Shown here piece by piece: positions 12,425-64,000 of a stretch of DNA of 64,000 nt. Every line of letters begins with the position of its first letter. The stretch's first letter is position 1. The notes under the pieces were generated by a model. That model worked only from the letters and a program-made list of their open reading frames with translations. It did no database searches and was not told the DNA's origin. This stretch comes from Trypanosoma brucei (lineage: Eukaryota). The stretch is taken from positions 2,720,001 to 2,784,000 of the forward strand of contig CM000207.1 of NCBI GenBank assembly GCA_000002445.1. The letters run 5' to 3'. The position numbers and the translations under genes were made by a program.

Positions 12425-12660
12425 TCTCATTATAATATTCGTATATACACACTCACAACACTCTTCTATCATTATCATCATCATTATTATTATTATTATT
12501 ACTGCTCTTATTATAATATTCGTATAGACACACACTCACAAGACTCTCCTATCATTATCATCATTATTATTATTATTATTATTACTGCTCTTATTATAAT
12601 ATTCGTATAGACACACACTCACAAGACTCTCCTATCATTATCATCATTATAGCCCTAACT
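12425..12660 (-). repeat. 70-bp repeat array (about 3 tandem copies)
   Basis: Tandem copies of cattataatattcgtataGacacacactcacaagactctcctatcattatcatcattattattattattattactgctctt. Confidence 0.85.
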
Positions 12661-20400: not shown

Positions 20401-20922
20401 AATTTAGAGAGTGAGAAAAGAGGATATTTGGTGTAAAAGATTTGGCAGAAATTTAAACTTATTTGATTGACAGTGAAAAATGGAATTTTGAATATGGTGA
20501 GGTTCGCGGAGAGGTGTCAAGTGATGGGAAGTTGTTTAACGCTAAGAAATTGTAGTTGATAACCGGTGGAAGCAAGCAAATAAGCATGTCTAGGGGCGGC
20601 TAAGTATAATAATAGCGACTCATATGGAGGAAGTACCAGAGTCAGAGCTGAATTAAGCAGTTTTGACTAATGCTTCCTTAATTCCGCAGATTATCAGTTG
20701 TGGAGTAGCAAATACATGGCCATCGGATTCCACATGGAAGAGCAGAGTGCCAAAATCGCAGTCAAGCGCAAAACCACTTCGAACATCTATAGCAATTAAA
20801 TTAAAAGGCAAAACTCAAAACAACCGACGACTGGTTACAACATCAGAAAACTGGAGTAGCTGCAGAAACACAATACAACAACCTCCTTACCTCGCTCAAC
20901 CTAAATACAAGGAGAAACAGGC

Positions 20923-23721: not shown

Positions 23722-25100
23722 GTGGCAGCCGATTTTTCTGAACTCGCGAATGCTAACGAAGCGACGGCGCTTTGTGCGATCGTAACACTCGCCGGCCAGC
23801 GGTCTTCGTTACCCAGCAGCAACGTACAACCACCGTCAGCCCTCAACGACCTCTTAGACCTCAACATGTCGGTGGCGACAAACGAATGGCGGGAACTCTT
23901 CAGGGCAGGGCCAGGGAAAAACACAACGAGGGATTTCCCTGAGGCCGACTACAATGAAACAACAGACTGGAAAGGAAAATGGGCCGCATGGAAAAGCAAA
24001 GCAGAAGAGCTTCTGAGCACAGACAAACTTAAAGCCAAGAGGGAGCAACAAGGGCTAAAACATGCAACTGAAGAACAGATAGCCGAAATCCGACGCGACG
24101 TGCAGAAACGTGCGGCGGAAGCGGTGGCGCTTCACTTCCAAGCAGAAGCGGACGCGCCATCGACAGACCTTCTAACGGACGAGACAATACAACAGCTTCT
24201 AAACGAAGCAGTCTACGGCCAAAAAACGGAAGCAACAGGTCAAGCTTTGGCAAAAAACAATTTCGACGAGACAACAGGCGGCAGCAGGCAGGCGCTCTGC
24301 ACAGGACAAAAGGATGGCGGAAAAACAAAAACGGTCCTCGGTACGCTGGCGTGCCTCTGCATGAAAGAAAGCACCAACAACGCCCATAATCAACACAAAG
24401 TATGCCGAGCCGATCCCGCCATGTCGGCAACATGGACCCAAGGTAGTACGCCGCCGAATCAAGCGACGATGGAGGAAGTGAAAAAACTGTGTGACACTCA
24501 AACGACAAGCCAAATAACTGCGGCGAAGCTAGAATCAAAAATAGACGCCATAACAAGCCTTATAAAGTTAGACACAACAAAGGCGACCCTCGGTGTGTAT
24601 CTAGGTACAGACTGCTCAGCACAAGATACAAGAGGGATATGTGTAAGCTACAACGGCCTTTCACAAGGAGCGGGAAAAGCCAGCGAAGTGATACCTTGGC
24701 TGGAGCAGCTTACCGACCTGCTAGGAAAATTACGAAAACATAAAAAAGCCGTTGCAATCCGACAGCACACTGCAGATGCAGTAAAGTCAAAAGCCAAGAT
24801 AACGAAGGACCTAATCTACCATGCGCGACCGTGGGCAAACAAAAACGTTGCTCAGAAGAATGTCAAAAAAAAAATAGTGACGACGCAACCTTAGCAAAAA
24901 CAAAAGAATGCGCACAACACAAAAATAACAAAAAACCTTGCACAGGAGCGAAATGCTCATGGAAAGGTGGAGAAAGCGAAAACAAAGGGGAGTGCGAAGT
25001 AGATGAGAAACAAGTTAAAAAGAAAATAAAAACAGAAAACAGTGAAAATGCAGGAACAACAAACACTACAGGAAACGATTATGCTGTTATTAACAAGTAG
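23722..25100 (+). pseudogene. VSG: VSG pseudogene (no ATG or signal peptide; frameshift in poly-A run about 24862..24873)
   Basis: ORF 23722..24894(+) starts at gtg. It has LNDLLDLNMSVATNEWRELF (B-type) and IPWLEQLTDLLGKLRKHKKAVAIRQ. ORF 24831..25100(+), in another frame, carries the C-terminal domain CTGAKCSWKGGESENKGECEV...NDYAVINK. Confidence 0.8.
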
Positions 25101-27511: not shown

Positions 27512-28268
27512 ATGTTTCAAACCACATTAGTAACAGCAATAACAGTAGTCCTTTTTGCGGATAAATGTGCACCGACAGCAGGACACAATATCAAAGAATT
27601 CGCGCTAATGTGTCAACTATTTACCACGTGCGAACAGGGGACTTCAACCACTGGAAACGAGGCTGAACCAACACTAGAATCTGAAACAAAAAACGTTAGT
27701 CGTCAATAACATGTCGGCAGCAGATGAAGAATTCTTCGGAAGTAACTTCGACGACGTCCAAGACCATAAAAAGGACAAGAACTACGCAAAACACAAAAAC
27801 ACTTGGGCACAAACTAAAAAAAAGGATTTAGGCACAAAAAAGATAGGAAATATACCGGAAAAACTTACACGTATGACCGCCGGTACACTTCGGTTCGGTA
27901 TACAACAACAAGCACTGGAAGCGATACCTAACCTCGAAGCAGAAAAAGCGGCGTTGCCCAAGGACAAGACAACGATAACGATAAATTATGACCTAAAGGA
28001 GGTTCTGTACGGCGAAGGAAACACAGAAGCAAAGGGTACCTGGCAGTCAACGTTCGGCAGCGGCGGCAACGCAGCATGCGGCAATGACGGTAGCGCAGAC
28101 AACAAGGTCGGCACATCTCTAGCCAACGGCCTGGCCTGCCGTTGCGGCGACAACTCGGACGACACGGCTGCCGCAGGTTGTATAAGCAACAGGAGCTCAA
28201 CCGGAAGCAAGTTCGCCAGCGAAGCCTGTGGCCCAGCACCCAAAGCGACAATAGTGGCGAAATACTAA
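27512..28268 (+). pseudogene. VSG: VSG 5' fragment (signal peptide plus part of N-domain, frameshifted)
   Basis: ORF 27512..27709 MFQTTLVTAITVVLFADKCAPTAGHNIKEFALMCQLF. ORF 27711..28268, in the next frame, has ...LKEVLYGEGNTEAKGTW...LACRCGDNSDDTAAAGC. It ends about 95 bp before the ingi 5' end. Confidence 0.7.
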
Positions 28269-28724: not shown

Positions 28725-31700
28725 TTGAGCGAGACAAGGATGACGCTTGAAGAGGCGGCTTGCTTTAGCGTTGCTGGCTACCAACATCACGGAATAGCTC
28801 GTAACTGCAAAGGAGGTGGTGTATCAATACTAGTGAGGGAGGACCTACCAGTTGAGATCGGTATGGCCGTTGTTGGTCGCATTGAACAAGTGCATGCAAC
28901 AATTCACCTTGCACGTGGAAAGGCGCTGACTGTCACGTCGGCATACGTCCCACCAAAACACACCTTCACGGCAACTGACCTAGATACGCTTCTGACAACT
29001 GACGGTTACCAGCTCATCGGTGCAGACGCTAACGCACACGCGTTGGCATGGGATCGCACGAGCCCACCAAATACCAAGGGTGAAACCCTCACACAGTGGT
29101 GCATTGACAACCAGTTTCTGGTCTGCAACACTGGTCAGTGCACCAGGTACGCGCGCCACCACGGGGAGTCCACCCTTGATGTGACACTGTCAAGGAATTG
29201 CACAGTGTACATGTGGACATCGCTGTATTCTCCCGATAGCGATCACCATAACATATTTTTCGACTTTATCGTTGGAGATGACACAGATGCACTGAGTTGC
29301 CCGCGGCTTCGAAAGCCCATGTACGCATGGCTAAAAGCTAACTGGAGGAATTTCCGTCTCAAGGTTGACGAGCTCTGCAGGAAAATTGGTAGAGAGAAGA
29401 ACGTCAATACCCTGGAACAGAAATTGAGCTCCGCCATCCGCATTGCGACGAAGATGTTCGTCCCCCGTAGCTGCAGAGCAACGCCACCACATTGGACACC
29501 AACGCTCACTAAACTCGATGAAGAGATCGCTGGATGCGGACCCTCCCACCGAAGGGAAATGTTGGTAGCCACGCGTAAGCAGATCCTGGACCGTACCACA
29601 AAGAAGAGATGGAGAACGCTATGCTCCAGACTTGCGGTGTCAGACCGCTGCAGTTGGCACATTGTCAAGAAGGTATATGCGCCACGACCACTAACCACAC
29701 TGGCTGTACTTGTTGATAACGCGGCCATCACGGACTACCATCAAGCTGAGAGGTTCAGTAAACTGTACTCGTCCCGTGCAAGAACGCACCCCGACTCACA
29801 CCCACCGGCACCAATAAAGACGATAGCGAGTGAGTTCAGTCCCATCACGATGGCTGAACTATGGAGATCGATCAAACTGCTTCCGACCGGATCCGCAGCA
29901 GGACCTGATTGCTTATACAACGAGGCAATACAACATTTCGGTAGAACAGCGCTGAATGTTGTTCTGAGGCTATTCAATGAGAGCCTACGAACGGGAGTCG
30001 TGCTGCCTGCATGGAAGATTGGTGTTATCATCCCCATCCTGAAGGCCGGAAAAAAGGCGGAGGACCTCGATTCTTACAGGCCTGTGACGCTCACAAGCTG
30101 TCTCTGCAAAGACATGGAGCGCATAATTGCCGCGAGGCTTAGAGACACTGTTGAGTCCCAGCTGACGCCGCAGCAATCAGGCTTTCGCCCCGGATGCTCA
30201 ACGCTCGAACAACCGCTGCACGTCCGCGCTGCCCTCTGCCGCCCCACGCACCAATATCGTACAGGTGCTGTATTCGTTGACTACGAGAAGGCATTCGATA
30301 CAGTAGACCACGACAAAATTGCGAGGGAAATGCACAGAATGAAGGTATCACCCTACATTGTGAAGTGGTGCGTATCATTTCTGAGTAACCGAACTGGAAG
30401 AGTGAGATTCAAGGAGAGGCTTTCCAGAAGCAGAACATTTGAGCGAGGAGTGCCACAAGGAACTGTCCTTGGCCCAATCATGTTCATTATTGTCATGAAC
30501 TCGTTGAGCCAGCGCCTTGCAGAAGTGCCGTTGCTGCAGCACGGATTCTTTGCAGACGACCTAACGCTACTTGCGAGACACACAGAGAGGGATGTCATCA
30601 ACCACACACTGCAATGCGGCCTAAACGTGGTGTTACAGTGGTCACAAGAGTACTTCATGTCTGTCAATATAGCGAAAACAAAGTTCACACTCTTCGGGTG
30701 TATAGAGCGCCACCCCCTTACATTGCAACTGGACGGCGAAAGAATAGGAGCTGACAGGACACCGAAGCTTCTCGGAGTAACATTCCAGTGTCTGCAGGGG
30801 ATGGCAACACATGCAGCCGAAACGAGACGCAAGATGGACTTCCGACTACTGCAGATAGCATCCATCTCAGCTTCTACATGGGGGCCAAGACGACAAGTAC
30901 TGAGAGCTTTTTATCTAGCACTCGTACAGGCACACACCATGTATGGCATTGAGGTATGGTACTGGGACGCTTCGGAACGAAGTCGCGACCTCCTTGCAGC
31001 AGCACAACACAAAGCCAGTCGCATCATAGCTGGCATACCGCATGGGACGCGCAAAGAGAACTCTCTGCTGGAAGCAAACCTCCTGCCACTCAAGACGGCC
31101 ACTCTTGTGCGCAGCATGAAATTCATACTGATGTGTGAGTCACGAGGCGGATGTCTGCGCCGCAGTGCTGAGGAAGTACACCACAGCAAACATCCAGTCA
31201 GAGTCTTACATTCCCGCATCATGCGGTCCTACCCCCACCTCCGCATTGAGCCACGCGAGCACCCACTGGAGACATCGACACTCCGCCACAGCTGCCGACC
31301 GCTATTTCACACGCAGATAAAGCCTGTGTGCGCTGATGACCCTGACGATGTCAAAAGGGAGGCTTCCGAAAAGTGGATTGAACGGCATTTTGCACGGAGG
31401 GGGAAGGAGCCACCGCGACGAGAGCACTACGAATTGTGGACTGATGGATCCGTGTCCCTCGGTGAGAAGTCCGGAGCAGTTGCTCTGCTCTATAGAAACA
31501 ACACGCTGATTTGTGCACCCAAAACTGGAGCAGGGGAACTCTCATGTAGTTACAGAGCGGAATGCGTAGCATTAGAGATAGGACTGCAACGGCTGCTGAA
31601 ATGGCTCCCGGCTTACAGAAGCACACCGAGCAGGTTGTCCATCTTCTCTGACTCGCTGTCAATGTTAACAGCACTGCAGACAGGTCCCCTAGCCGTAACG

Positions 31701-32576
31701 GACCCAATTCTGAGACGACTATGGAGGCTTCTGCTTCAAGTTCAGAGAAGGAAGGTGCGTATCCAACTGCAATTTGTGTTTGGCCATTGTGGCGTGAAAC
31801 GGAATGAGGTTTGTGATGAAATGGCCAAAAAGGCCGCTGATTTACCACAGTTGCGAGATACATGGATCCCCGACATCATTGCTTATGCGAAGCGAGTGCT
31901 TAGGTCGGAAGAAGTCCATGAGAACACTCATAGGTTTGGTATCACGGGCAACCACTTTCCAACAAAACATAAGGAAGAACTGACGAGGGAAGAAGAAACG
32001 GCACTGGCACGCTTTCGGGTTGGGTCTTCAAGACACTATGGATGGATGTTGCGAAAGATCAACCCGAGTGTGCCTCCACAGTGCCGATGGTGCAACCCAC
32101 AACATGCAGCGATAGGACCAACAATACAAACAGCCCCACTTGTTGCGACACGCACTCTTCAGAGAACCTCCGAACCGATCAAATGTACGGAATGTGATGC
32201 CACATACCAATGCCGCTCGAGTACTGTAACGCACATGGTAAACAAACATGGCTTTGTGCGAGCTGATGCCCTCCGGAGGATCAAATACGGCGATGCAACA
32301 CCCGCAGTGGATATCCCCCCGGAGCCCCCTCCAGTGGTGGCGATCGTTCCTCTACCATCGAGCACACGAGTCCCGATGAGACCGCAGGTGCTTCATTGTA
32401 CCATCTGTGCCTCCAAATTCGCAGTACCAGGCAGACTATTACACCACCTTAGAACAATACATGGCATAGGCAGCGGTAGTTGCCGCGTGAAAAGGGGGCG
32501 AGAGAACGAGGACTCATTGCAAGGAGATGGTAGAGCCCCAGCAGCGCCAGCCTCTCAGGATACACGGAAGCTGTAG
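28725..32576 (+). CDS. ingi polyprotein ORF (endonuclease C-terminal part, reverse transcriptase, RNase H, zinc fingers), 1283 aa, ending at an in-frame stop
   Basis: ORF-track protein with RT motifs (YRPVTLTSCLCKDMERIIAARL; FADDLTLLA), RNase H and CxxC...HxxxH fingers (CTECDATYQCRSSTVTHMVNKHG; CTICASKFAVPGRLLHHLRTIHG). Confidence 0.85.
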   Translation: MSETRMTLEEAACFSVAGYQHHGIARNCKGGGVSILVREDLPVEIGMAVVGRIEQVHATIHLARGKALTVTSAYVPPKHTFTATDLDTLLTTDGYQLIGADANAHALAWDRTSPPNTKGETLTQWCIDNQFLVCNTGQCTRYARHHGESTLDVTLSRNCTVYMWTSLYSPDSDHHNIFFDFIVGDDTDALSCPRLRKPMYAWLKANWRNFRLKVDELCRKIGREKNVNTLEQKLSSAIRIATKMFVPRSCRATPPHWTPTLTKLDEEIAGCGPSHRREMLVATRKQILDRTTKKRWRTLCSRLAVSDRCSWHIVKKVYAPRPLTTLAVLVDNAAITDYHQAERFSKLYSSRARTHPDSHPPAPIKTIASEFSPITMAELWRSIKLLPTGSAAGPDCLYNEAIQHFGRTALNVVLRLFNESLRTGVVLPAWKIGVIIPILKAGKKAEDLDSYRPVTLTSCLCKDMERIIAARLRDTVESQLTPQQSGFRPGCSTLEQPLHVRAALCRPTHQYRTGAVFVDYEKAFDTVDHDKIAREMHRMKVSPYIVKWCVSFLSNRTGRVRFKERLSRSRTFERGVPQGTVLGPIMFIIVMNSLSQRLAEVPLLQHGFFADDLTLLARHTERDVINHTLQCGLNVVLQWSQEYFMSVNIAKTKFTLFGCIERHPLTLQLDGERIGADRTPKLLGVTFQCLQGMATHAAETRRKMDFRLLQIASISASTWGPRRQVLRAFYLALVQAHTMYGIEVWYWDASERSRDLLAAAQHKASRIIAGIPHGTRKENSLLEANLLPLKTATLVRSMKFILMCESRGGCLRRSAEEVHHSKHPVRVLHSRIMRSYPHLRIEPREHPLETSTLRHSCRPLFHTQIKPVCADDPDDVKREASEKWIERHFARRGKEPPRREHYELWTDGSVSLGEKSGAVALLYRNNTLICAPKTGAGELSCSYRAECVALEIGLQRLLKWLPAYRSTPSRLSIFSDSLSMLTALQTGPLAVTDPILRRLWRLLLQVQRRKVRIQLQFVFGHCGVKRNEVCDEMAKKAADLPQLRDTWIPDIIAYAKRVLRSEEVHENTHRFGITGNHFPTKHKEELTREEETALARFRVGSSRHYGWMLRKINPSVPPQCRWCNPQHAAIGPTIQTAPLVATRTLQRTSEPIKCTECDATYQCRSSTVTHMVNKHGFVRADALRRIKYGDATPAVDIPPEPPPVVAIVPLPSSTRVPMRPQVLHCTICASKFAVPGRLLHHLRTIHGIGSGSCRVKRGRENEDSLQGDGRAPAAPASQDTRKL

Positions 32577-34099: not shown

Positions 34100-34990
34100 G
34101 ACGGGGTACCGTAAAAAAACAGCCGCTATATCACTAGAAGAAAAACATGGATCATTAAAAAAATATTGGGTCGATGTGGGGATGAAAAAGAAGGTGGAAA
34201 AAATTTAAGGAAAGATGTATGCTGGATGAAAAACGGTTAGGGTTTGCAGAAAAAAGAGACGCTTAATAATTAAACAAAATTAAAAAATATATTTAAAAAA
34301 ACTAAAAATCAAAAAAATCAAAAAAATGAAAATTTAGAAAAAATTAAAGAGGCAAATTTTTTTAAAACGCTTCTGAAGTACAAAAAATAAAAGCCGCCGC
34401 ACGGCTTGTGAGAATAAGGGTTAAGGTCCCATAACAAAATAGCCGCTGGACGGCTGAAAAAATAAAAACAAAAGCTAAACCCCAAAACGACTCAGAAAAT
34501 TAAAAAATTAGCGTGGAGGAAAATTAACCCTAACCCGAAACACCTCGGCATAAAAAGGAAGGGAGGTCCAAAAAAAACGATATCGGATGGAAAAGGAAAG
34601 TAAAAAATATCAAAGGTCAAAAAAATTTTTAAATTAAAATTCAAAAATTCACGAAATTAAAAAAATGCTGAAAAAAAATTTAAGCATAAAAAAATCAAAA
34701 TTACAATTAAAAAGTTGTTAAAATAGAAAAATTCAAAAAATCTAAAGGTCTAAAAATCTAAAAACTTTGAAAAAACCCTAAAAAATACTAACCCTAAAAT
34801 GTCAAAAAAATTCAAAAAAGGGAGAAAAAATGGAAAAAAATATAGGCGCCAGAAAAAAATCACAGAATCAGAATATTTTACAAAAACACACTATTTTCAG
34901 GTAAATTACCTGTTAAAATATATCAAATAGCAAAAATTTCTTTTAAAAGGGGAAATTTGTTTTAGAAAAACAAGGCCACAAAAGCAAAAA
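34100..34990. repeat. internal degenerate telomere-like A-rich tract
   Basis: aacggttagggtttgc; ataagggttaaggtccc; aaccctaacccgaaac; actaaccctaaaatg, inside poly(A)-rich DNA. The segments tgggtcgatgtggggatgaaaaag and cagaatcagaatattttacaaaaacac are homologous to the 13.3 to 13.7 kb and 57.2 to 57.7 kb tracts. Confidence 0.55.
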
Positions 34991-37278: not shown

Positions 37279-37597
37279 TTCTGAACCTCTTTACTTTAAG
37301 TGGCTACGTTTCGCTCCTGAATAGAACGATATTGTGTGATGCATCTATTGGCTCATTGCAATTGCTGTGTCCGCGGCAGCACATACATTTAGTGTACTTG
37401 GTAGCGAGCCACCCTTGGGTCTGTACTATAGGGTTCTTCAAAAACTCACAATTATAGAGCCTTAACAAAATCCCCTCCTTTAATCGCATCACAACAAATA
37501 CTTCCACATTTAACCACCCATTCCTTTCCATCTATTGAATACATTTTAATTTTCACCAAATTTCTCGTATTAAATTTCTTCCTTTTAACTATTTACA

Positions 37598-38400
37598 TTA
37601 TGTAAGGGTTTTCACAATTAATTTCGCTTTCTCTTTCCATGCAATTGGCTGTACAGGAAAATGGATGAATGGAACCTTTCCAACTTCACTATTAGTCAGA
37701 ATCAAAAAGTATCTCTCCTCATAATCTAATCCAATCATTCCTCTCTTCAAAACAAATCTCTCTCCAACAGCTTCTTCCTGAATGGCACTCCATATTAGCA
37801 GAGGCTTTGAAATACTTTGATCCGACCACCACTCCTCATTTTTTTTACAATAACTCTTGAAATGCATATTCAAACATTTTAACTGCCCATACTCTTGCTA
37901 TTAAAGGTCAACCACTAATATAAGGTTTTCTACTAGGAGGAGATTTCAGTAAATGAGGTAATTTATTATCCTCCCCTTTTCTGTAACCGACATGAAAAAA
38001 CCAAAAACATCTCTGCACATGCTCCTTGTGATCTGAATTCATAACCAAATCCAACTGAGGCGCATAACACTCTGATGTTGTCATGAATATAATAGGGGAA
38101 ATATGCTTCTCTTTTACTATATCTTCTCCACTAAACTTCTCTTCATTTTCAGCAGTATTTTGTATAAAATATTCCACACCATTCTCATACTTATTTCCAT
38201 CACTAACTATAACATCAGATCCGTCTAAATGGATTACAATATCCTCATCACTTGCATTATGTTTTTTCAAAAATTCCATAACTCATCTAGGTCTCTTAAC
38301 ATGGCTATACAGACCTCCTATCGTAATTACAATAATTTCAACATTTCTTAATTAGCCACTCAATATGAGTCAACACCATCCTTGAGTTCCATGAGTTTGA
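37598..38400 (-). pseudogene. GT31-like family pseudogene, copy C (best-preserved copy)
   Basis: ORFs 37908..38279(-) and 37598..37873(-): MEFLKKHNASDEDIVIHLDGSDVIVS...IIFMTTSECYAPQLDLVMNSDHKEHVQRCFWFFHVGYRKGEDNKLPHLLKSPPSRKPYISG / ...AIQEEAVGERFVLKRGMIGLDYEERYF... Confidence 0.5.
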
Positions 38401-39354
38401 ACGACAACGACAAACACTCTTACTTTGCTAGAATTATTTTGTGTTATATTTGTTGTTGTGTTTTATTGAAAATCTATTTCGCTTAAACAAAGTGAATGTT
38501 ATAACAACAATAGATCCCATAAGATAATAAACTTCATCTCCGTAACTCACCTACAAATTTGATTGTTTTATAAACAAAGCTTAGAAACATTAAGGAAACA
38601 AGTCAAATGCGCCACTAAGGTCTTTAGTTAAGGAAAAGATTTCATATAGATAATGCCTTGATGTTTATATATTGGAACTGTGAAGTGTGTATACTTAGTG
38701 TAAATAGCTTATCTTTGGGCACACAAATCTGATACTTTCTTAATAAAATAACTTTTGCTATACCTATAATCACACACTAACTGTATTTCACTGTAGTTTG
38801 CATTTACATATTTTGCGTATGCATTTTTATTACAATTGCAGTAGCGATTCGTATTGTTTCTCTCAAATATACTACGAAGTTTGCTACCCTTACGTGATAA
38901 ATACTATAACCACACTGTTTTATTATGAGAATTCAATTAGTATGGCTTCATAAATTAACAATTCTGTTGTTTATACCTCTATCCCTGAAATAGCATGTAT
39001 TTGCGATTTTCAAACATAGGGATAAATTTCATTAAGTATTATTTTCTTTCTTAGCATATTACAGCGCACCCTATTGTTTCACTCTATATTTATGTTTTTT
39101 TATCTTTTTCTTTTCTGTCTCTATTGATACTGATAACGTAGCTATCAAATTTGGTTTGCATTCTCTACCCTGTTTCTACCTAATTTTCACCTCCATCATC
39201 TCCCTGTGTATAATGTTTCCCTTTGTCATGTTTGTGCCTAAAACTACGCATATTCTATGTCATTCTCTCTCCCCTTGCCTCTCATTCACTCTCGTTGGAC
39301 ACTTAATATTGTTTTAAAAGATTCTAATTTGGCATTATATTTAGTCTTCACCGA

Positions 39355-39731: not shown

Positions 39732-41174
39732 CTAAAATTCTACAAAACCCACAAAAGAAGAAACAATCAGGGCGATTTTTTTGTTTACTAGAATGGAGGA
39801 ATCTTTGCATTCTGTTCCTTCCCATTTGCAACCATCTTTGCACACGGCTTCACTTTTATTATCTTTGCATTTTTCTGTTGTTGTTTCAGGTCCTCCAGTT
39901 TGTGCTTGTGTTACAGAAACACTCTTCTTTTTTGCTTTTTCTGTATCTAATTTGCACTTTTTATTTTCATCAGTTTCTGTTTTGTTAAAACTGCATGCAG
40001 CTGTTGCATTGCAGTCTGCTTCGATTTTAATTTCGTTGCAGCCGCCTTCTGTTGTGATTGGGTTACATTCTGTTGGTGGTGGTGGTGGAGTTATTTCCTG
40101 TGTTAGTTGCGCTCTTTTTGTGGTCTCAGTGCTTTTTCCTGATGCCGTAACTGCGTCCCCTCTAAGCTTTTTGATTGCCTTGTGAGCTGCTTTCAGCGTC
40201 GGTACGGATATTTCTACAGTTTGTTCCGTGTCGCCAAGTCCGAGTTTGGCTTCCGTTGTAGTTATAGCTTTAAAAGTCGGGTTGGGGTCGGCGCTTCCGA
40301 GTGTTGTTAATTGACCGAGTGCCGCCGTCGCTGCGTCTAAGCTTGCGGTACATGTTGGCTTTAGAGCCTTGACTTTGGTTATCGGGTTATTTGTTTCGAG
40401 TGGATGGCCGGTGGACCAGCTAGTCGCCGCTGGTACTGAACCTGTCAGTTTTAGCAAGCCGGCCATAAGATAGATCGTTGGTGCGGTGCCCCCCCCGGCG
40501 CCCATTACTCCGTTTGTGCCGTCAGTTGCTGAGAGTCGGCAGCTTTTGGTGGCGTCGACGCCTTTGCTGCCATCGCCTCCTGTGCCGAAGTTTGTTAGAG
40601 CGTGCTGGGCGCCGGTTAAGGTTGCGACCGCCTCCTTCTTGAAGGTTCGTCTCACGGCGTCTCTGTCCTTGCAGTCGGGGATATCGTTGATGGCTGCTCT
40701 GCCGCCTGCTCCGTCGTTGCTCATGCAATAGTTCGAGCCGCCGTTGTTCGCGGCAAAAAACAGGTGCGTGGTTTCTAGTATCGCACCGGCAACAAAGGCT
40801 CCTTCATTTCCGGCGTCTATCGCTGCTGCCAAGTGTGTTCGCACAGCTGCCTTTGCTTCGTCTACTGTGGTCCTAGTATGCATCAGAAGGTTTATATTGT
40901 CGTCGTTCCTCGCCAGTGTCCCTGATTTCATTAACTTTTTTATGTCGTGGAGTATCGTTTCAACTTCAAAAAGGTGGCTTGTTAGTGTTTTGGTTATTGT
41001 TTCGGCGTAACTACCGTATTTCATCAGCTCGTTGGCAATCTTGCAGCTGTCATCAAATCCCTTGGCTTTTAAGGCTTCTTGTGTGCCCATGGTTGGTGCT
41101 GACGTCGAAATTAGACTCAGGATTGCCAGCAACATCTGGTACAGGACAGGTCTACGTTTGGATGTTTGAGTCAT
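39732..41174 (-). CDS. VSG: VSG, apparently intact (480 aa, A-type N-domain, two Cys-rich C-terminal subdomains, GPI signal)
   Basis: Single uninterrupted ORF MTQTSKRRPVLYQMLLAILSLISTSAPTMG (signal peptide) ... GGSNYCMSNDG ... ECNPITTEGGCNEIKIEADCNATAACSF ... CKDNKSEAVCKDGCKWEGTECKDSSILVNKKIALIVSSFVGFVEF. 3'-UTR element variant at about 39640..39660. 70-bp repeat 1.5 kb upstream. Confidence 0.75.
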   Translation of the reverse strand: MTQTSKRRPVLYQMLLAILSLISTSAPTMGTQEALKAKGFDDSCKIANELMKYGSYAETITKTLTSHLFEVETILHDIKKLMKSGTLARNDDNINLLMHTRTTVDEAKAAVRTHLAAAIDAGNEGAFVAGAILETTHLFFAANNGGSNYCMSNDGAGGRAAINDIPDCKDRDAVRRTFKKEAVATLTGAQHALTNFGTGGDGSKGVDATKSCRLSATDGTNGVMGAGGGTAPTIYLMAGLLKLTGSVPAATSWSTGHPLETNNPITKVKALKPTCTASLDAATAALGQLTTLGSADPNPTFKAITTTEAKLGLGDTEQTVEISVPTLKAAHKAIKKLRGDAVTASGKSTETTKRAQLTQEITPPPPPTECNPITTEGGCNEIKIEADCNATAACSFNKTETDENKKCKLDTEKAKKKSVSVTQAQTGGPETTTEKCKDNKSEAVCKDGCKWEGTECKDSSILVNKKIALIVSSFVGFVEF

Positions 41175-43029: not shown

Positions 43030-44571
43030 ACTCAGAACAAACTTCTTATTTTATAGAAAACTATTGCTTCCGCACTTCTCCATATTCTAGTCGTCTCCGC
43101 CATCTTTTCCTTTTCTCCATCCACAAACAGAGGTTTGGCAAGCAGTATTGCGTTTTTCACAAGTTGATTTATCCTCATGTTGCTTACAGTTTGTGTTTTC
43201 TCCCTCTGCAGATCCCTCTACTTCTTCTGTTGTGTTTGTCTCTCCTTCTCCATCTTTAGGTTTGCATTCCTTTTTAGTGCCATCACATGTGCAGCTGTCT
43301 TGTGGGCACTCTTTCTGGTTTCTATTGTATTTTTCACATGCTTTCTTCTCTTCTACTGTTGGTTCTTTGTTTCCTTTTGGAGTTAGTGCCGGCATTGTTG
43401 GTACATCCTCGATATTTATTGATTCGTACAATTGCCATGCGCTGAGTTTGAGGTGTTGTAGTTCTGTAGCGGTTTTTTCCTGTTTTGCTTCCTTTTGAGC
43501 TCGTGCTAAAAGTTTGCTTGCCGCATGTTCGATGCTTTTGTAACATTTGATTTCGTTTCTGGGCTCGCTTGGTCACTCCAACATTTCTTTTGTGTAGTCT
43601 ACGCATGCTACTTTTGCTTGGCTTGGGAATTTGCCAGTGGTATGCGGATTTCCTAAGACAACAGTGCCGGGGTCGGCTTGCTTACCGCTCTTAAGCGCCG
43701 CTCTAAATGCTGCTACCGCTGCCGTGATTTCGTGCGCCGTGAGTTTTCCCGTAAACGGCTGGCATTTGGGTTCCAGTGTGTCCCACGCTGTTTTTGGTAC
43801 GAAACTTCCTCCCCAGGCCTGGCTGTGGGTAGCCACTGTGTGCCCGCAGAGCTTGACGTCGGTGGTGGTGCTATCTGTGGCGCGCAGGCAGATCAGGTCA
43901 TCTATGAGGGATTTGTCGGCTGCTGGGATTGCGCAGTTGGCTTCCCTGCTCCCGCTGTGTATTATTGCTGCTGCTTCGCTGCCGTCTTTTGCGGAAGCTC
44001 CTGTACCGTATATGGCGGCATCCAGGTCCGCTCTGATATCAGGTGCTCCGTCAGCCAAACTTGGCTTAATGTTCTTTTCGTAATCGTTGTAGATCGATTT
44101 GGCGTTGTCAGCTATTAGTGCAAGTTGTTTTTGGATCCGCCTGCCTGTGACAGTTTCCTGTGGCCCTCTTTTGAGTTTGAGTTTCTCATTAGTTTTAGAA
44201 CCCGCTATGAATGCCGCTTTGGTGGCCTGCCATTTGGAGTAGAGTGTTTTGCAGTTCTCCTTGTCGTGTGCCATTATCTTGGAGCATGTCGATTCTGCTT
44301 TCTCTGCCTGTGCGTCTTTGACCTCGTCATCGAATTCATTGTACCATGAAGTTACACTGGCTGACATGTTTAGCTGTTCTATTTCGCTGACATCGGCGGT
44401 ACTGAGCTCCGCTACATTTAACCTTGTTAGATCGCTGCGCGCTAATGAAATAAGTGAACACATCACGTGGAATTCCTTCCCGTTTGGCATGTCGCCTTGA
44501 GCAGCTCTTGCATATTTTACCAATTCCGGTAAAAGCAGCAAAACAAAAGCTAATATAACGTGTGAATTCAT
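43030..44571 (-). pseudogene. VSG: VSG pseudogene (B-type; stop between N- and C-domains; stop in GPI signal)
   Basis: ORF 43573..44571(-) MNSHVILAFVLLLLPELVKYARAAQG...EIEQLNMSASVTSWYNEF. ORF 43087..43431(-) C-domain in another frame. GPI region reads EKCGSNSFL*NKKFVLSMAAAFTSLVAF. Confidence 0.8.
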
Positions 44572-45834
44572 CTGGTAGTCTGCTTTGCCTATAGAGTTAA
44601 AAGTGTAGTCAAAACGAAGTTACTGACACATCTGGATAGTTATTAGGTGCGTTTGGTTTTTATTTTTGGCGGTCTAATTGAATTTTGTTTCTGATTTTAA
44701 TTTAGATGTAGTCTGCCACTTCCGCTATTCTGATCTATATCGTTCTATTCCTATATATAAAACAATTAAAATTTATGGTTTCTTTGAGTCAGTCTATTTC
44801 AGTCCAGCTTCTGCTTGCTAAATGCATCGTCTACAATGATATAACGCCAATTGTTTTGCAGCACGCATGATTGTATGTATTTTACACTGTAACCCCAGCT
44901 GATCGTCGGTTTCTTTAGTCTATCACACGGTAACTGCGTAACCTCGTGCACTCTTTTTTCTTTTGAACATTCTTGTTATTCTTCAACACCGCGTCAGCGT
45001 GTATTTTTATGCTAATTAGCCACTCTTGAAACAGTCATAGTGTCTGACCGGTAAAACAATAGGTAGTGGTGGTGTATCATTACAAACTTTTGACACTTTA
45101 CATGAATATTCTTTAACGACTAATTCTCGCACCATTTTAAGAAGTTTTCGCACCTTTACCCTTCTTCTTCTTGCCAAAGAAATTCATTAGTAGTCTTGGT
45201 TTTATACTTATTCTCCCAATAATATAACATTTGTTTCTACAAGGTTTGACCATTACTACTATATTTTATGGGAAAAAGGCTCCCACACTACCTCATAATT
45301 ATCTAATTCCTTCTTTCTGCTGTTGGTGTTCCTATTTATTTAAAGCTGGATATTAGAATTCACCATTAAATTAAAAACCACGTTTGCTACTGTTGTTTCT
45401 TCAATGGCTTATATATCCATTTTTAGTAAAATACGTGGCGTTATCGGTTACTGTTTCATGTGCTTTTTTGTTACGAAGTCTTGTAGTTTATCGTTTTATG
45501 CCATATTTAATTATCTTCTTTTCCTTTTTCCCTCTCTAAACGCTTCGGCAGATGACTTAGAAATTTGATTTGGCTACTAAAGAGGACTCTTTCTATTCCT
45601 CATTGTCCCCCATCATGGCCATGCGCATGATGATGACCATTTTCATGTTTGTGATTGAAACTAGGAATCTTCAAAATTTCTTCCCTTTATGTTTCTCTTT
45701 CTGCTTTCCATTTTATAATGTAACGAGTGCTTGATGTTTTATTTAATTAAACACCCATTTACTTACTTCAATTTCACCATCGTCGTTGCCTTCAGTTTTT
45801 CCATTTGTATACTTATTCAGCTATCAAAAATGTT

Positions 45835-45965
45835 TAATATAATATTCGTATATACACACTCACTACACTCTCCTATTATTATTATTATTACTGCTCTTAT
45901 TATAATATTAGTACAAACACGTTCACAACTGCCTCCTATTATTATAATCTTTATTATCATAACTC
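45835..45965 (-). repeat. 70-bp repeats (about 2 copies)
   Basis: aatattcgtatatacacactcactacactctcctattattattattattactgctcttattataatattagtacaaacacgttcacaactgcctcc. Confidence 0.8.
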
Positions 45966-46201
45966 TAAGCCTAGCCACTATCCGTAAATAGGTCAAAATA
46001 ACAAAATTAAAATGTTACTCACTTTGTTACACCTTATCACCATAATAAGCGGCATACACAGGACACAGTAATATACATTTTACTAAAATTTCATATTTTA
46101 AAAAATTTCACTAATTTTCACACTTTTATTAAAGGTGTTAAATATATCAAATTTAGAAAACTTCATTAATTTCATAAAGTCGAGGGGAAATCTTAAAAGT
46201 T

Positions 46202-47656
46202 TTATAGAATCAAAAATGCTAGCAAAAGAGGAGCTTTATTGATAACAAAAGAATTACTTACTGTGGTGTTTGTAGCTTTTCCATCTGTCCCTGTTGCTGC
46301 TGTGGTCGCTTTAACTTTGCACTCCCCATCTTTGTATTCACACCCATCCTTGTTGTTGCATTTAGTTTCGTCTTTTTCTCCCTTGCACTCTTCTGATTTT
46401 TTGTTATACACTGTTTCTGATATGTTCTTCATTTTCTCTGCCGTTTACAGTTTCCGCTTGATTCTTATTCCTTCCATTTGGCTGAGAGCTAAGTTTGCTG
46501 CTTGTGCTGTTGTCATGCTTGTAATCTTCTTTTTTTCCTGCTTGACTCTGTCTCTTGTCGGTGTTGTGTCTGCAGCAAAATCTTCTTCAAAACTCGCTTT
46601 AAATGCGTTGGCGTCGTGCCCGAATTTGCTCGAAATCCACTCTGATATTTTTTGACCCTCCGCTCCGCTTTGTGGGTCATCTGCGCTGTCGAATTTGGGG
46701 AGACAGTTGCGTATCGTGCGGCGCACTATTGGGTTATCCTTTAGAGCTGGGCCACTTAGGGTGGGCATCGTTTCTGGCGCAACGTCGGCCTTTAGTGCTT
46801 CGCAGAGTTTCTGGGCGAGTGTTTTGGGGTGATTGGCTGCGTCCTGTGGAGATGCGGCGTCATTGGCACACGCTCCACGCTTCTCGTTCGATGCGAAGAA
46901 TTGAATTTGAGTCTGAGCCGGTTTTCCGACCCAGTTTCCGTGCGTGAACGCGACTTTGCCGTCGCTGGCATGCCATGTGCAGGCGTTAAGCACTGTGCCT
47001 TGGCTACCGCTGCTACCGCCGCTGAAGCCTGAACCGTGGGCTGGGACCAACTTTTTGGTTGGGACGTATTCGTGGAGTTTTGCTGCGTCCGTTACTTTCA
47101 GCTTGTACAGTTTCGTTGCATCTGGGTTTCTGCCTTTACATTCTGGTGTTGCCTCTGGTGCTGTTGGCTTGCAAATCTGTTTACCGGCCGCTTTCGTTTC
47201 AAGGTTTATAGTAACTGTGTGGCTTGCTTTAGTGTGACTGGCGTCCGTTTTCGCCCCTACTACTGTTGTCGCCACCGCTATTGCCGCTTGGGCTATACCG
47301 ATCTGAATATCTATCCTTTGCTGCGCTGCCCGCATAGCGGTCGTTGCTACCGCGAGCTTACCTTCGTTTCTCTCGAGGCTGTTCCCTGCGAGAGCCACCA
47401 GCGCCAGGATGCTGCAGATGTATTCGGCCACCATAGCTTTCGCTGCTGCCAGCCTGTATTTGCGCGCCAAAGTTTTTGAGTCAGCGACTGCTGGGCTCAG
47501 CGACCCGAGTCGGCCTTCAAGCTGTTTCCTAAGTTCTTTTAGGTAGTCGACCTCAGTGCAGGGGTCCGTTATCCCTTTTTCCGCGGCGGGGTCGTTTGTT
47601 TCAGCCGCCGACGTAGCCGTATATTTAGATAAAAGAAGCGCTATGGTTAGTGTCAT
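46202..47656 (-). pseudogene. VSG: VSG with a single in-frame TAA (46445..46447); otherwise full length
   Basis: ORFs 46445..47707(-) and 46202..46432(-) are in the same frame, separated by taa plus 4 sense codons. Signal peptide MTLTIALLLSKYTATSAAE. C-terminus ...CKGEKDETKCNNKDGCEYKDGECK...NSFVINKAPLLLAFLIL. Confidence 0.8.
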
Positions 47657-48624
47657 TGCTTTTTTCAATATCGTGTGGCAGCAGCTTGGTTTACGGTCAA
47701 GAATCATATTGTATATTTCTTCTACTGCTCTCTAACTTGCTTCCAAAAGCTGCATATGTTTTGTTACAGGGTTTTGTGTAAATCACAATTTTTGTTAAAT
47801 TTTTCTGACGGCTCTTAGTTTGATATATAAGAAAATTGGGTTTATACAGTTTATTAAAAATTTTGATGCTAACTCCACTTTGGCTTCCAGTGTACTGATC
47901 AGCATTTATATAAGTAAAAAAAAAACTAACGTAAAACTCGAAAAGTAGTGAATTATTCTATTTTAAAGTTGCATTTGATTGTGGCTTGTTGTATTCATTC
48001 GCCGTCATTTGTTGCTTATATTGTCGCATTGCACGCTCGTTTCAGGATTTTTGTGATTTTGTAAACGATTATTTAGCCTGTTTTAGGGGTAAGTATTGAC
48101 ACGAAAGTCTGTCACAACTATTGATGTGTATTTTATATTCATGCTTTTGATTTAATTGTGAGTGTGCGCACTTTTTTGGCACTTTTTCCTTTTCCACTGT
48201 TTGTTTCGCTTGTAGTCTGGTGTTTGTTGTTCTTTTCAAATACTTGGAATTAGAATACGCCATAAAGTCAAAAACTAGAGTCTTCACCATCATCTCTGCG
48301 GTGCCATCTATTCGAATTTAAGATAAATACCAGCTGACACAATTCCCCCTTCCTCCTCCTGATATATTACCTTCTCTTTCATATTTTTTCTCCGCCTCTG
48401 CAGGTAATGTAGAGAAAACATTTTTCCTGCGCACGGGATTTTGTCTCCACCTTTTTGTTTTCCCCATCATATCCCTGTGTATGATACTGCCTATCAACAT
48501 GTCTGTATACAAAGCTGCTCATTTTTCATTTCCATTTCTTTTAGTCTTCACTAATTCCCATTGCACCATTTCCATTGTTTAGAGAACTTCTATTTCAACT
48601 GTGCATTTACTGTACACTACTCCT

Positions 48625-48745
48625 ATTATAATAGTATTAGTATACACACACACTCACAACACTTCTATCATTATCATTATCATCATCATCATCATTATTA
48701 TTATTATTATCAATATTGCTTATTATTATTACCATTATAGTCAAA
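48625..48745 (-). repeat. 70-bp repeat with long TCA/TTA triplet run
   Basis: ctattataatagtattagtatacacacacactcacaacacttctatcattatcattatcatcatcatcatcattattattattattatcaatattg. Confidence 0.8.
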
Positions 48746-54282: not shown

Positions 54283-54774
54283 CTGTTTTGTCTGGCAAAA
54301 AAAATACTAAAGCTTGAAAAGGGTTGACTTGCATAAAATATTTTGTAGTTCTGTGTGGGAATATTTGGGGGATTTTTCTTTTCTGTTTCCAGGTGTCATG
54401 GGCACTGAGTGAGACGGAACGCTTGCGGCTACTAAGATTACAGCCCGGTACCGAGGTGCCGCACTGTCGCCTCCACTTTAAAAAATGTTTGTTATTTGGT
54501 ACTATGTGCTGTCACAAAGTGGGGTAAAAATTCACTGCGTGGCTCTGTGGTTAGTTTTCACCTTGTAGTCAGGGGTATAGTTCTGTTCTGTGTTTTAGAC
54601 GCTTTCCGCCTGTAAACTGCGATGTAGTATAGTGCATGCGGCTTGCCTGACCATTCTCGTTACACTTTCTTAGCTTTAAATAACTCCCTTTCTTTGAAAG
54701 AGTCACCACAAATATCTCCATAATTAAAATTCCATTTTTCTCCACTCATAGCATAAGTTCAAATCTTTCTTGAA

Positions 54775-55400
54775 TCATTCGTCATAAACCGCCTTGTTTC
54801 CAACTCTTTCTACTAAGTAAAATTTTTTACAATCAATTTTTCTTTCTCCCATGCAAGTGGCTGAAAAACAAAAATAAATAAATGCAGTCTTTCCAAACTC
54901 TCCACTAGTTGGAATAGAAAATAATGTCTCCTCATAATTCCATCCAATTATTCCTCTTCTCAAAGAAAATTTCTGTACAACAGCTTCTTTTTGAGTTGCA
55001 CTTCACATTGGTAAAAGCGATGAAAACTTTGCTCTAATTTCCATTATTCTCTTCCTCTCAAAAATTCTCCAAATACATATTCAAATATCTTAAATTCCCA
55101 AACTCTGGCTATTAAGCCACCACTAAGATAAGATTTTTCACTAGGAGGTGATTTCAGCAACTGAGGTAATTTTTTATCCTCTTCTTTTTCTTAACCTACA
55201 TTAAAAAACCACTTACATATCTCCATGCTTTTTTACAATATCCTCATCACTTGCATTATGTTTTTATAAAAATTCTATAACATCTAGGTTTTCTGACATG
55301 ACTATACAAACCTCCAATCTAAATTGTAATAATTTCAACATGGCTCCGTTTGGCACTCAGTATGAGTCTACACCATCCTTGAGTTACATAAGTTTGAACG
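54775..55400 (-). pseudogene. GT31-like family pseudogene, copy D (internally deleted, degenerate)
   Basis: ORF 54775..54963(-) MRRGIIGWNYEETLFSIPTSGEFGKTAFIYF corresponds to KRGMIGLDYEE.LFSIPNSG of copy A. Sequence at 55330..55440 matches the 5' flank of copy C (38320..38440). Confidence 0.4.
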
Positions 55401-56404
55401 ACAACGACAAACACTCTTACTTTGCTAGAATCATTTTGTGTTATATTAGTAATGTTATTTATTTTTTCAAAATATCAAGTGATTTTGTGCTTTAGTACTC
55501 TAAATGTAATATCCATGGTAGTGGTAAAATTCTCAAGACACCAAACGTCATTCTAAAATATACTTTTTAAATCTTAAAGTGTTAAAAGAAGAATTAGAAA
55601 CTTTAGGAAAAGAAGTTAGTTGCACCACTAAGGTGAACAGTTAAGGAAACCATGTTTACATATGTAAATAATGCGTTAACATTGTTCTGATATAATTGTT
55701 AAAGGGTATATCCTCACCATCTGTAGCTTATCCTTGAGCACGGATCTCTGGGCTTTGTTTTTTTAAAGTTAGTTTCTATCCGTAGTTGGTTCTGCGCTCC
55801 ACATGCATGCTACTGTTACTTTTTCACATTTCCCCATTCTGCGTAGTTATGGGAACTACAGTAGTTAGTTGTACTGATTATTTCAGATACGCTAGGAGTC
55901 TTACCAGTTGCCTTTGGTAACTATCTCGGTAGCCGCTTTTAGCACGAGACTCTCCTCACCATAGCTTTATTACATACATATTCTCTTGTGCAATCGTTAT
56001 CTATGCGATGGCATCTATCCACTTATGTGTATAAGGTGCTGCACAATCTTTTTCTAGTTTTTCTCTAGAGTACTGCTCTGCACCAAGATGTTTCATTCCG
56101 CATTCCGCATTCCGCATTTCCATTTCCATTTCTTCTTTTTCATCCTCTATTGCTGCTTCTGCAGATAAGAGAGCGAGCTTATCTGAGCTATACATTGAAC
56201 TCTGTGCCTTTCTTAATGTCCTTTCCATTAACATCACATGTGTGATAATACACATCGCCGCGTTTATGCCGCAACTGCATGTATTTAGCCACTATTTTCC
56301 TTAGTCTCTTACCCTCCCTCTCACTCATTCACTTATTTCCATTGCAGTCTTGTCATTTTCTTAAATGCTTTTATTTTCTCTTTTCGTTCGGTTTTCACCA
56401 TAAC

Positions 56405-57169: not shown

Positions 57170-57720
57170 ATCCGGGCGCAACCCGAAATGCAAACCGGAA
57201 ATTCACAAAAGATTAAAAAGTGGTATTGTAACAATGTGGAAATAAAATAAATAGGTGAAAAATAAGAAGACGAAGTTGCCTACTCTCTGAAGAAGCGCCA
57301 ACCATAATTAAAAAAAGCCGCTGCATCGCAAAGAAAAAATGGCAAGTTATAAAAAATTCAAAAAAGGTAAATTAAAACCCTAACCCTAAGCCTAAGTTTA
57401 AGCCTACCTGACCTCCCTAACTAACCCCCTAACTAACCTAACTAACCTACCTAACTACCCCTCCCCACTCCTACCCCCACTTCCACAAAAAAAACGGGAA
57501 AGAAGGAAAAAAAAATTTTTAAGTTTCCAGAAAAAATTTCTAGACAATCAGACAGTCAACTTACAAAACACAGAACAAAGAAATCTCGGCTGGTTTTAGG
57601 TGTTAAAATATATCAGAAAGTTTTCAAGTAGCAAAAAATTTTAGCAAAAATTTTTTAAAAAAGAGGGGTAAAAATTAAAAAAGCAAGGCCACAAAAGCAG
57701 CAGAAACCATGCTAAGGGCG
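57170..57720. repeat. internal degenerate telomere-like A-rich tract
   Basis: aaaaccctaaccctaagcctaagtttaagcctacctgacctccctaactaaccccctaactaacctaactaacc (57365..57440). Flanking box attgtaacaatgtggaaataaaat is shared with 13225..13250. Shares cagaatcag...aaatctcggctgg.tttacgtgttaaaatatatcagaaa with the 13.6 kb tract. Confidence 0.6.
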
Positions 57721-61417: not shown

Positions 61418-62699
61418 AGAGGGTGTGTTTTGTTACGTCATGCTGATGCTTAGTTATTCTTAAAGCTAACGAAGGCAAAACCGTTGATTCTCGTGATTGT
61501 TTGTGAAGAACCGCAGTTTTGTATAGGAACCACGATTTTTGTCTACCGCTTTCGTGTGGCTCCGCCATTTGAATACCTACACGCCTGATAAACAACTGAA
61601 GTCATAGAAGTTTATGACAACTTTTAGTTTTGCGTGACGCTACACAGGTTGCGATTTTCTATAGACTGAAATAAAGGTCGATTCATATTTACGCCTTATC
61701 TAAAAAATCACCCAGTCTTCTTTCGGATATGCCGATTCTGAAGTAAAGAGACCTATGCAGAATCTATGAAAAGCTGTTCCAGAGCTTGCTGTTTCGCATC
61801 AGAATTCACCATCTATTAAAAAATACATCCACAACAAGTTTTAGAAGCTTAGAATAACATTTAGACACAGCGTCTCATCTTTTTAATATGCTGAGTAACA
61901 CTTATATAAATTAAAAAATGAAAAAACTGTATAATTTCAATAATAATTGATTAGTATCTTTTGAAGCTGGATTTCACTACAGTTTGTTGGAACTATTTAT
62001 TGTATTTTTCGGCTTCTAAAGATGCCTATCACGGGTAGTTCTGGATTTTTGTGATGTCATAAACGAATATCTTGCCTATTATATGGCAAATATCTTCATG
62101 CTATTCCGTGACCACTAGTGACTAGATTTTCTTACTGTTATTTTTGAATTTGGTTGTAGTAGAGCGCTATTATCAAGCATTTTCCTTTTCGTCTATTTCC
62201 GTTGTTTTCTCTTGTTTGATTTGTGGCTCGTTATTGTCAACAACTGGACATTGGTGCTCCTCCATCATATTTAAATCCAAGATCATCATCATCTATAACG
62301 TAGAATATATACATTTGTGAGTGAAATATAGAGGTCAATATCCTACTATATCTTTTTTCCCGCTGATTTGTGGTGTCAGATCGTATTCTGTCATTTCATT
62401 ATGCATTTATGGTTCTCTACTTGCTTTTTTGTCTCGAGTTTTTATGGATCACGTGTAAATTGTATTTTATCATACATAGATTCTGTTTTACACCATTTTC
62501 CTTTCTATCATCTTAATGAATGTAATGATACTCATCGTTATATCGGTGTTTGAAACCACAATATTCTGTTTGCCTCTCTCTTTATGTTTAAAGACATTTC
62601 TCGTGCTCTTCCTCACTCCTTTTCACACACTTACACCAACTGCACCGTGCCATCATTTCATTGCTTCATTTTTTCTTGTCAATTTGATGTCCATTACTT

Positions 62700-62785
62700 C
62701 TCTCATTATAATATTAGTATATACACACTCACAACACTCTCTTATTATTATAATCTTTATTATAATATTACTTCTCTTATAAATT
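62700..62785 (-). repeat. 70-bp repeat
   Basis: ctcattataatattagtatatacacactcacaacactctcttattattataatctttattataatattac. Confidence 0.75.
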
Positions 62786-63013
62786 TATCTAATATCCTCA
62801 AACAAAATAAGCCAATATAATAAATTTTTAATAATGACGCTAATTTTTCATTCACTATCACCATACTGCTTTACACCCATAGGATACTTTTATACTAACA
62901 CTTCATATTTTAAAAAATTTCACTAATTTTCACACTTTTATTAAAGGTGTTAAATATATCAAATTTAGAAAACTTCATTAATTTCATAAAGTCGAGGGGA
63001 AATCTTAAAAGTT

Positions 63014-64000
63014 TTATAGAATCAAAAATGCTAGCAAAAGAGGAGCTTTATTGATAACAAAAGAATTACTTACTGTGGTGTTTGTAGCTTTTCCATCTGT
63101 CCCTGTTGCTGCTGTGGTCGCTTTAACTTTGCACTCCCCATCTTTGTATTCACACCCATCCTTGTTGTTGCATTTAGTTTCGTCTTTTTCTCCCTTGCAC
63201 TCTTCTGGTTTTTTGGTGTCAATTGCTTTGGGTATGTTTTTCTTCTCTGCTTCAAGTTCCCTCTTGATTCTTATTCCTTCCATTAAGCTCACAGCTTGAT
63301 TGGTTTTCTCTGTAGAACTGGTTAGTTCGGTGATCTTTTTGCTTTCTACCTCTCCCTTGTCTCGTATGGGTGTGCTTTCACCCTCAAGTAGGGACTTGAA
63401 TTTGTCGTTGAAATTGTCTGCTGTTTCTCCGTAGCCTTTTTCTATCCATTTTATCAATTCTTTTGCCTTGCTGTTATCCGTTGGGTCGTCTATGTTGTGA
63501 AACGCAGGCCAGCAGTTGCGCACATAGGTTCGGATCGCATGAGACCCGCTGAGGCTTTTGCCGCTATATTCAGATATTTTTGTTGTGTTTGGTGTTAGCT
63601 TCACGCCCTCGCATATCGCCTTGGCTCGTCTTTTCAGTGGCTCATTTGCTGCATCTGCTGCTGTGATGTCTGAGTGGCAGGCTGTCTTGTCTTCGTTGCT
63701 CTTGAAAAAGTGGGTTGCTGTCCTGTAGGCTGATGCTGGCGGTTTGGCTTTTGTTATTTCGACAGCACCTGAGGCGCCGCTGAACGAACATGCGTTTAGT
63801 GCACCCGTAGCGCTTTGGCTGTTTTGCGTTGTGCAGCCGCCTTCGGCTGTAATTTTGATACCGTCCAGTTGATTGGCTTTGTTAACTTTTGATTTATCTG
63901 TGAGGTCCAGTTTAAAAAGGTCTTGCGGTTCCGGTGTTTCCCCTCCGAACGTTTCTTTTGCTTCGTCAGTTTCTAATTTGCACAGGTCTTCGCTTTTCGC
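63014..64000 (-). pseudogene. VSG: VSG, 3' two-thirds (runs off window end); frame break near 63604
   Basis: ORF 63014..63604(-) ...MEGIRIKRELEAEKKNIPKAIDTKKPEECKGEKDETKCNNKDGCEYKDGECK...NSFVINKAPLLLAFLIL. This is a paralog of VSG 46202..47656, with an identical roughly 310-bp 3' end. Upstream sequence to 64000 is VSG N-domain-like in other frames. Confidence 0.7.

Follow-up and report, generated by a model that had tools for sequence, protein, structure and literature searches.

Sharing of the C-terminal domain (CTD) and 3' UTR between VSGs, as well as conversion of silent VSGs, is already established in the antigenic variation of Trypanosoma brucei, so that the locus described here raises no new question. 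In '3' donation' (Hall, Wang & Barry 2013, PMC3708902), which is a segmental conversion with its junction in the CTD and donors of low identity, a gene is copied into the active expression site while the resident 3' end and all DNA downstream of it are retained, and N-domains can be combined with a different tail. It was seen in 57% of the unique expressed VSG sequences of mouse infections. Conversion among silent VSGs of the archive is also accepted, with ectopic subtelomeric recombination acting 'independently of locus' (Gjini et al. 2012, PMC3472502). These conversions were diversifying imports into the N-domains of closely related pairs, with mean tracts estimated at 14-25 nt. In mosaic VSG formation (PMC3708902; PMC13233330), homology-guided patching is segmental and pseudogenes take part; mosaics arise within the expressed gene, their donors are highly related, and it is usually the N-domain that is altered. 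Recent work reported that recombination junctions are biased towards the VSG 3' end (bioRxiv 10.64898/2026.07.31.741217).

Here we describe two silent VSGs, genes A and B, with an identical 306-bp block at their 3' ends. Both were found in a stretch of 64,000 nucleotides of T. brucei DNA, which we call the window. Judging from the sequence comparison, it is probable that a recent ectopic homologous recombination copied one VSG 3' module, of which the two silent array VSGs now carry a copy. The locus resembles 3' donation in that the junction is in the CTD (codon 438), the partners are of low identity (34% between the N-domains), and the end of the CTD is shared together with the 3' UTR. Unlike in 3' donation, A and B are silent and array-internal, and the identity stops 45 bp past a 16-mer-like motif. 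Neither identity continuing downstream nor a telomeric site was found at either gene: the identity breaks off at 46089/62901, and both A and B are followed by further 70-bp repeats and VSG cassettes. Like the conversions of PMC3472502, this one would be an ectopic conversion of silent subtelomeric copies that is detected purely from the pairwise pattern of identities and mismatches. The A/B tract, however, is homogenising, measures up to 306 bp, covers the CTD and 3' UTR and joins a distantly related pair. Unlike in mosaics, neither N-domain of the A/B pair was altered, and gene A keeps its nonsense codon.

Two VSGs of a silent array

With 12 or more VSG genes or gene fragments and an ingi-like retroelement, the window represents a trypanosome VSG array, which supports the original prediction that A and B are two VSGs of a silent array. 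Neighbouring ORFs matched the Pfam families Trypan_glycop (A-type), VSG_B and Trypan_glycop_C, and the whole window gave no Rfam family at the gathering score. The two genes are in the same orientation with a spacing of 16.8 kb (Table 1). Gene A is a full-length pseudogene with a single in-frame TAA. The aligned position in gene B is GAA, and the frame of gene B is open up to the end of the window (64000). A 70-bp-type repeat marks the A cassette at its 5' end; the stretch upstream of B lies beyond the window.

Table 1. Coordinates, within the window, of genes A and B, their shared elements and the adjoining 70-bp-type repeats
Feature	Position	Strand	Remarks
VSG gene A	46202..47707	-	501 codons; ATG at 47707, TAA at 46202..46204
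In-frame TAA of gene A	46445..46447	-	codon 421; 49 bp upstream of the block
VSG gene B	63014..>64000	-	3' 328 codons plus stop at 63014..63016
Identical block, copy A	46090..46395	-	3' end of gene A
Identical block, copy B	62902..63207	-	offset +16812; content as copy A
21-nt exact island, gene A	46457..46477	-	ATGGAAGGAATAAGAATCAAG (MEGIRIK, hinge)
21-nt exact island, gene B	63263..63283	-	ATGGAAGGAATAAGAATCAAG (MEGIRIK, hinge)
Nonamer of 3' UTR, gene A	46182..46190	-	TTTCCCCTC
Nonamer of 3' UTR, gene B	62994..63002	-	TTTCCCCTC
15-mer, gene A	46135..46149	-	TGATATATTTAACAC, the 16-mer minus one T
15-mer, gene B	62947..62961	-	TGATATATTTAACAC, the 16-mer minus one T
70-bp-repeat-type element downstream of A	45834..45960	-	upstream of the next VSG cassette (43087..44571)
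70-bp-type counterpart downstream of B	62693..62780		
Single 70-bp-type repeat	48620..48735	-	~0.9 kb upstream of the A start codon

Gene A, with its stop read as X, was compared with solved structures by phmmer and matched VSGsur (6z7c/6z79) over residues 15-500 with E=1.8e-23. Its CTD matched MITat 1.2 (7p57) with E=4e-4 (phmmer). Gene B is 46% identical to gene A over 331 residues. Three Pfam VSG models were applied at the gathering score: PF00913 (A-type), PF13206 (B-type) and PF10659 (C-terminal domain). The N-domains of A and B had no Pfam VSG match at E<=0.01, and at E<=10 the only match of the two genes was PF10659 on the CTD with 9.5 bits, below the cut-off of 21.4, whereas neighbouring VSGs in the window do match the Pfam VSG models. 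The match to VSGsur combined with the miss in Pfam places A and B in a divergent, VSGsur-like subgroup of VSGs which is overlooked by the models.

The cysteines of the CTD are spaced as C-x8-C-x5-C-x6-C, followed by a linker, SNSFVINKAPLLLAFLIL and the stop, and the tail consists of 17 hydrophobic residues after a Ser (…TTVS, then NSFVINKAPLLLAFLIL). In the scheme of PMC12226131, CTDs have one or two structured regions. Like MITat 1.2, genes A and B have a CTD with a single structured region (type 2-like), four cysteines, a linker and a hydrophobic tail. The likeness to VSGsur, the tail of which is NTTGSNSFVIKKAPLLLAFLL, extends over the full length of gene A. Unlike MITat 1.2 and VSGsur, A and B remain below the Pfam thresholds and carry a 16-mer minus one T, and gene A has a premature stop.

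Most VSGs in the window are visibly pseudogenes. Split VSG ORFs were seen at 6755-7707, 9630-10756, 13739-15184, 43087-44571, 49133-50451, 57675-59349 and 59806-61417, and the only intact-looking VSG is that at 39732..41174 (480 aa). The array, otherwise on the - strand, is interrupted by a + strand block of B-type VSGs, in which VSG_B fragments (21319..22377, 23722..24894 and 27711..28268) are accompanied by an ORF of 1283 aa (28725..32576, +) with endonuclease, reverse-transcriptase and RNase H domains, that of an ingi-like non-LTR retrotransposon. At 12417..12650 an 83-bp unit of 70-bp-repeat type is repeated in tandem, with 2.8 copies that match at 94%. This is the sole multi-copy run of that type in the window, other cassettes having single copies.

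Degenerate TTAGGG-type repeats were found at 13505..13530, 57378..57470 (- strand) and also 34528..34539. They are located 150-220 bp past the canonical or near-canonical 16-mers (13679, 57600, 34910) of three internal VSGs, which may derive from telomere-proximal copies. A non-VSG repeat family of ~1 kb is present in four copies (4428..5530, 19574..20554 (inverted), 37458..38473 and 54661..55658) with 71-85% identity and with ORFs that have no Pfam match. The copies at 4.4 kb and 37.5 kb share a 118-bp exact island (4922 and 38042), which is perhaps another conversion tract.

A 306-bp identity with two ends

An ungapped comparison at the offset of 16812 showed that the two copies of the block are identical in 306/306 bases, with a mismatch on either side (46089/62901 and 46396/63208). 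The original prediction had recognised the identity of the two tails correctly, but the coordinates that it gave, 46089..46398 and 62903..63214, were 1-7 bases off and unequal in length. A k-mer census of both strands showed that the block is the longest exact repeat of the 64-kb window; the runner-up, of 118 bp, sits in an unrelated element. The chance of 306 matches in a row at the identity of the best flank (79%) is P = 5e-32, and a fragment-length test on a local alignment of 620 columns with 97 differences gave P ~2e-27. Chance is excluded as the source of the identity. The divergence within the block has a 95% upper bound of ~1%, by which the copying event would be recent. An exact 50-mer from the block had 0 matches in a metagenome scan, and a full-text search of the literature for the tail peptides of A and B gave no paper. 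Among the proteins of a collection that evidently contains no trypanosome VSGs, none had as many as three 5-residue words in common with the 89-aa CTD, and exact-product look-ups returned no contig for the 420-aa ORF of gene A or for the intact VSG of 480 aa.

The block is composed of 2 nt, 63 codons (EECKGEKDETKCNNKDGCEYKDGECKVKATTAATGTDGKATNTTVSNSFVINKAPLLLAFLIL), the TAA stop and 112 nt downstream. The 63 codons encode the four-cysteine region, the linker and the GPI signal, while the 112 nt past the stop are divided into a 67-nt 3' UTR through the end of the 15-mer and 45 nt beyond, where the downstream limit lies. The 5' limit is the second base of codon 438 of gene A (KKS followed by EEC; KKP followed by EEC in gene B), three codons ahead of the first cysteine of the CTD. 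This anatomy agrees with the prediction that the shared part is C-terminal domain plus 3' UTR and that it includes the GPI signal. The sequence CKGEKDETKCNNKDGCEYKDGECK was likewise found in the block, although it had been called a part of the Cys-rich domain and is really the whole four-cysteine region. The point of divergence was found where it had been expected, at ttctgatttt in A against ttctggtttt in B. The nonamer TTTCCCCTC, presumably the conserved 9-mer of VSG 3' UTRs, recurs in the 3' UTR of the VSG at 13.7 kb.

The conserved 16-mer of VSG 3' UTRs has the consensus TGATATATTTTAACAC (bioRxiv 10.1101/2020.01.30.925776). Both A and B carry the 15-mer TGATATATTTAACAC at the expected site, 52 nt after the stop; the 16-mer variant of the prediction, aggtgttaaatatatca, is present in the block at 46133..46149. 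Seven 16-mer-like sites were found in the window, all on the - strand (6375, 13679, 34910, 42926, 46135, 57600 and 62947). Three of them are canonical, two have one substitution, and the 1-nt deletion occurs in A and B only. The deletion is derived and shared, and it falls in the only element under known constraint, which argues for copying rather than selection. If A or B were copied whole into an expression site, the mRNA would probably be unstable. Since both genes have the 15-mer, each would probably depend on a fresh resident 3' end, that is, on 3' donation. The intact-looking VSG of 480 aa has no 16-mer within two errors, and the same holds for all + strand VSGs.

Outside the block, a codon-threaded alignment of the proteins covered 262 codons, with an identity of 34% for amino acids, 48% for nucleotides and 37% for third positions; a gapped nucleotide alignment agreed with it. 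Third positions there are close to saturation, and the N-domains are distant paralogues, as had been predicted. Inside the block, the 63 codons were 100% identical at the amino-acid, nucleotide and third-position levels, and so were the 115 non-coding and stop bases. The nucleotide identity of 20-codon windows nearing the block was 58%, then 72%, then 98-100%. Scattered mismatches, the sign of ordinary paralogy, were not found in the alignment, in which the identity steps from ~65-79% to 100% and down to 60%.

When six VSG 3' regions of the window were compared over the columns of the block, A and B were 100% identical and all other pairs 54-66%. The best identity of the block to other VSG 3' ends of the window was 72-80% by BLAST and 58-62% by MAFFT. 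Downstream of the block, the six-way alignment gave 60.4% for A-B versus 61.0% for A-D, 64.3% for B-D and 64.5% for C-D, where C and D are two of the other tails. The downstream identity of A and B is thus the background of unrelated VSG tails, indicating that the block is a two-ended island and not ordinary paralogy. The other tails of the window were also considered as outgroups for the direction of transfer, and were rejected because they are too distant (54-66%).

Upstream of the block, the 21-nt exact island in the hinge is common to A and B only. Between it and the block are ~60 nt of ~72% identity with two 3-nt indels. The island may stem from an older micro-conversion or reflect conservation of the hinge; a remnant of an older conversion may be of the short kind that has been modelled for the archive.

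Origin of the shared tail

The island is discrete, has two defined ends and is longer than the divergence of its flanks predicts, which is what characterises a gene-conversion tract. In the copying account, a short-tract gene conversion, or an equivalent double exchange, would have replaced up to 306 bp of one tail, the source being either the other of the two array genes or a common third donor. The module would span everything from the structured four-cysteine region through linker and GPI signal to the 3' UTR, and ~45 bp more. The exchange would have been guided by the patchy homology of related VSG 3' ends (~65-79% upstream, ~60-75% downstream), and this patchiness, with the 21-nt exact island upstream, suggests that the joints were resolved in short or micro-homologies. 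The tract extends beyond the 16-mer-like motif, hence probably beyond the poly(A) site, which points to a DNA template rather than cDNA. Because the copy stopped 49 bp short of the nonsense codon of A, gene A stayed a pseudogene: if B donated, A is not repaired, and if A donated, the stop is not passed on.

The segmental gene conversion of the original prediction is upheld as recombinational copying, but not its wording as '3'-boundary sharing', because the identity ends downstream too. A patch with two ends contradicts the retention of the recipient 3' end that takes place in expression-site switching, and the comparison gave no support to a role of the switching machinery in the event. Against the conversion account, flank identities of 60-79% are low for classical RAD51-dependent strand exchange, and the tract of up to 306 bp is >10 times the 14-25 nt mean estimated for imported tracts in the N-domains of silent VSGs (PMC3472502).

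Two copies of the block are visible in the window, and a direct transfer between A and B would look like two imports from a third donor. That A and B each took the tail independently from another VSG is, in our estimate, unlikely. One route would take each gene, by copying, into a shared expression site, where it retained the CTD and 3' UTR of the resident gene before its return to the array; of two junctions formed independently, the more 3' one would then set the 5' limit that is observed. Such imports would draw on a frequent process, 3' donation having produced the 57% of unique expressed sequences mentioned above, often from telomere-proximal donors (PMC3708902). The degenerate TTAGGG downstream of the 16-mers of other array VSGs (13505..13530, 57378..57470) also indicates that array genes with a telomeric past exist here. 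However, no TTAGGG-like tracts were found downstream of A or B, and the single downstream end base that they share (46089/62901) would be a coincidence if the imports were independent. More events would also be needed than in a single direct transfer. We consider it quite improbable that a whole cassette was duplicated and that later conversions overwrote the N-domain and, separately, the downstream DNA, leaving 306 bp. The canonical unit of VSG conversion, which runs from the upstream 70-bp repeats to inside the CTD (PMC3708902), would fit such a history, as would several weak matches that link 37.4-47.7 kb with 54.6-64 kb and whose offsets, at 16.8-17.2 kb, are alike. These near-collinear matches, however, are generic 70-bp repeats, CTD motifs and the four-copy element, and in the latter the 37.5-kb copy is matched more closely by the 4.4-kb copy (84%) than by the 54.7-kb copy (~71-85% in pieces). 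The duplication would further require at least two extra events whose ends happen to frame the module, and the downstream flank, at 60%, is merely family background. A 17-kb segmental duplication as the origin of A and B is unsupported, since the array repeats are generic and the A and B segments have no special affinity.

Assembly of subtelomeric VSG arrays is difficult, and a false identity could have arisen if the reads of one tail had corrected the other during assembly or consensus polishing. Such an artefact is nonetheless highly improbable, because 306 bp is short enough to lie within single reads of any technology, the limits are sharp to a single base amid well-differentiated unique sequence, and the tract is the sole one of its kind in 64 kb of similar repeats. 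Ordinary paralogy under strong purifying selection on the CTD and 3' UTR is effectively refuted. CTDs and the motifs of the 3' UTR are indeed the most conserved parts of VSGs (PMC3708902, PMC12226131), but selection would have to account for identity at 63/63 third positions and 112/112 non-coding bases, including the 45 bp past the 16-mer-like motif, while other functional-looking VSG tails in the window are at 54-66% over the same columns. A and B also both carry a mutation in the only motif for which constraint is known.

Possible tail exchange in the silent archive

We propose, only tentatively, that silent internal array VSGs exchange whole modules of CTD and 3' UTR in situ, without an expression site. 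If this is true, tract lengths would exceed the 14-25 nt estimated for the N-domain conversions about tenfold. The 3' ends of the archive would evolve in concert and may spread defective elements, such as the 16-mer minus one T, and even VSGs with an open frame such as B would depend on 3' donation for their expression.

The recent copying of a 3' module that we favour provides a base-resolved example in a silent VSG pair, with single-base end points and with a pseudogene of one nonsense codon as one of the partners. [quoted passage not shown] It also illustrates that an intact-looking VSG of the archive may still need a donated 3' end.
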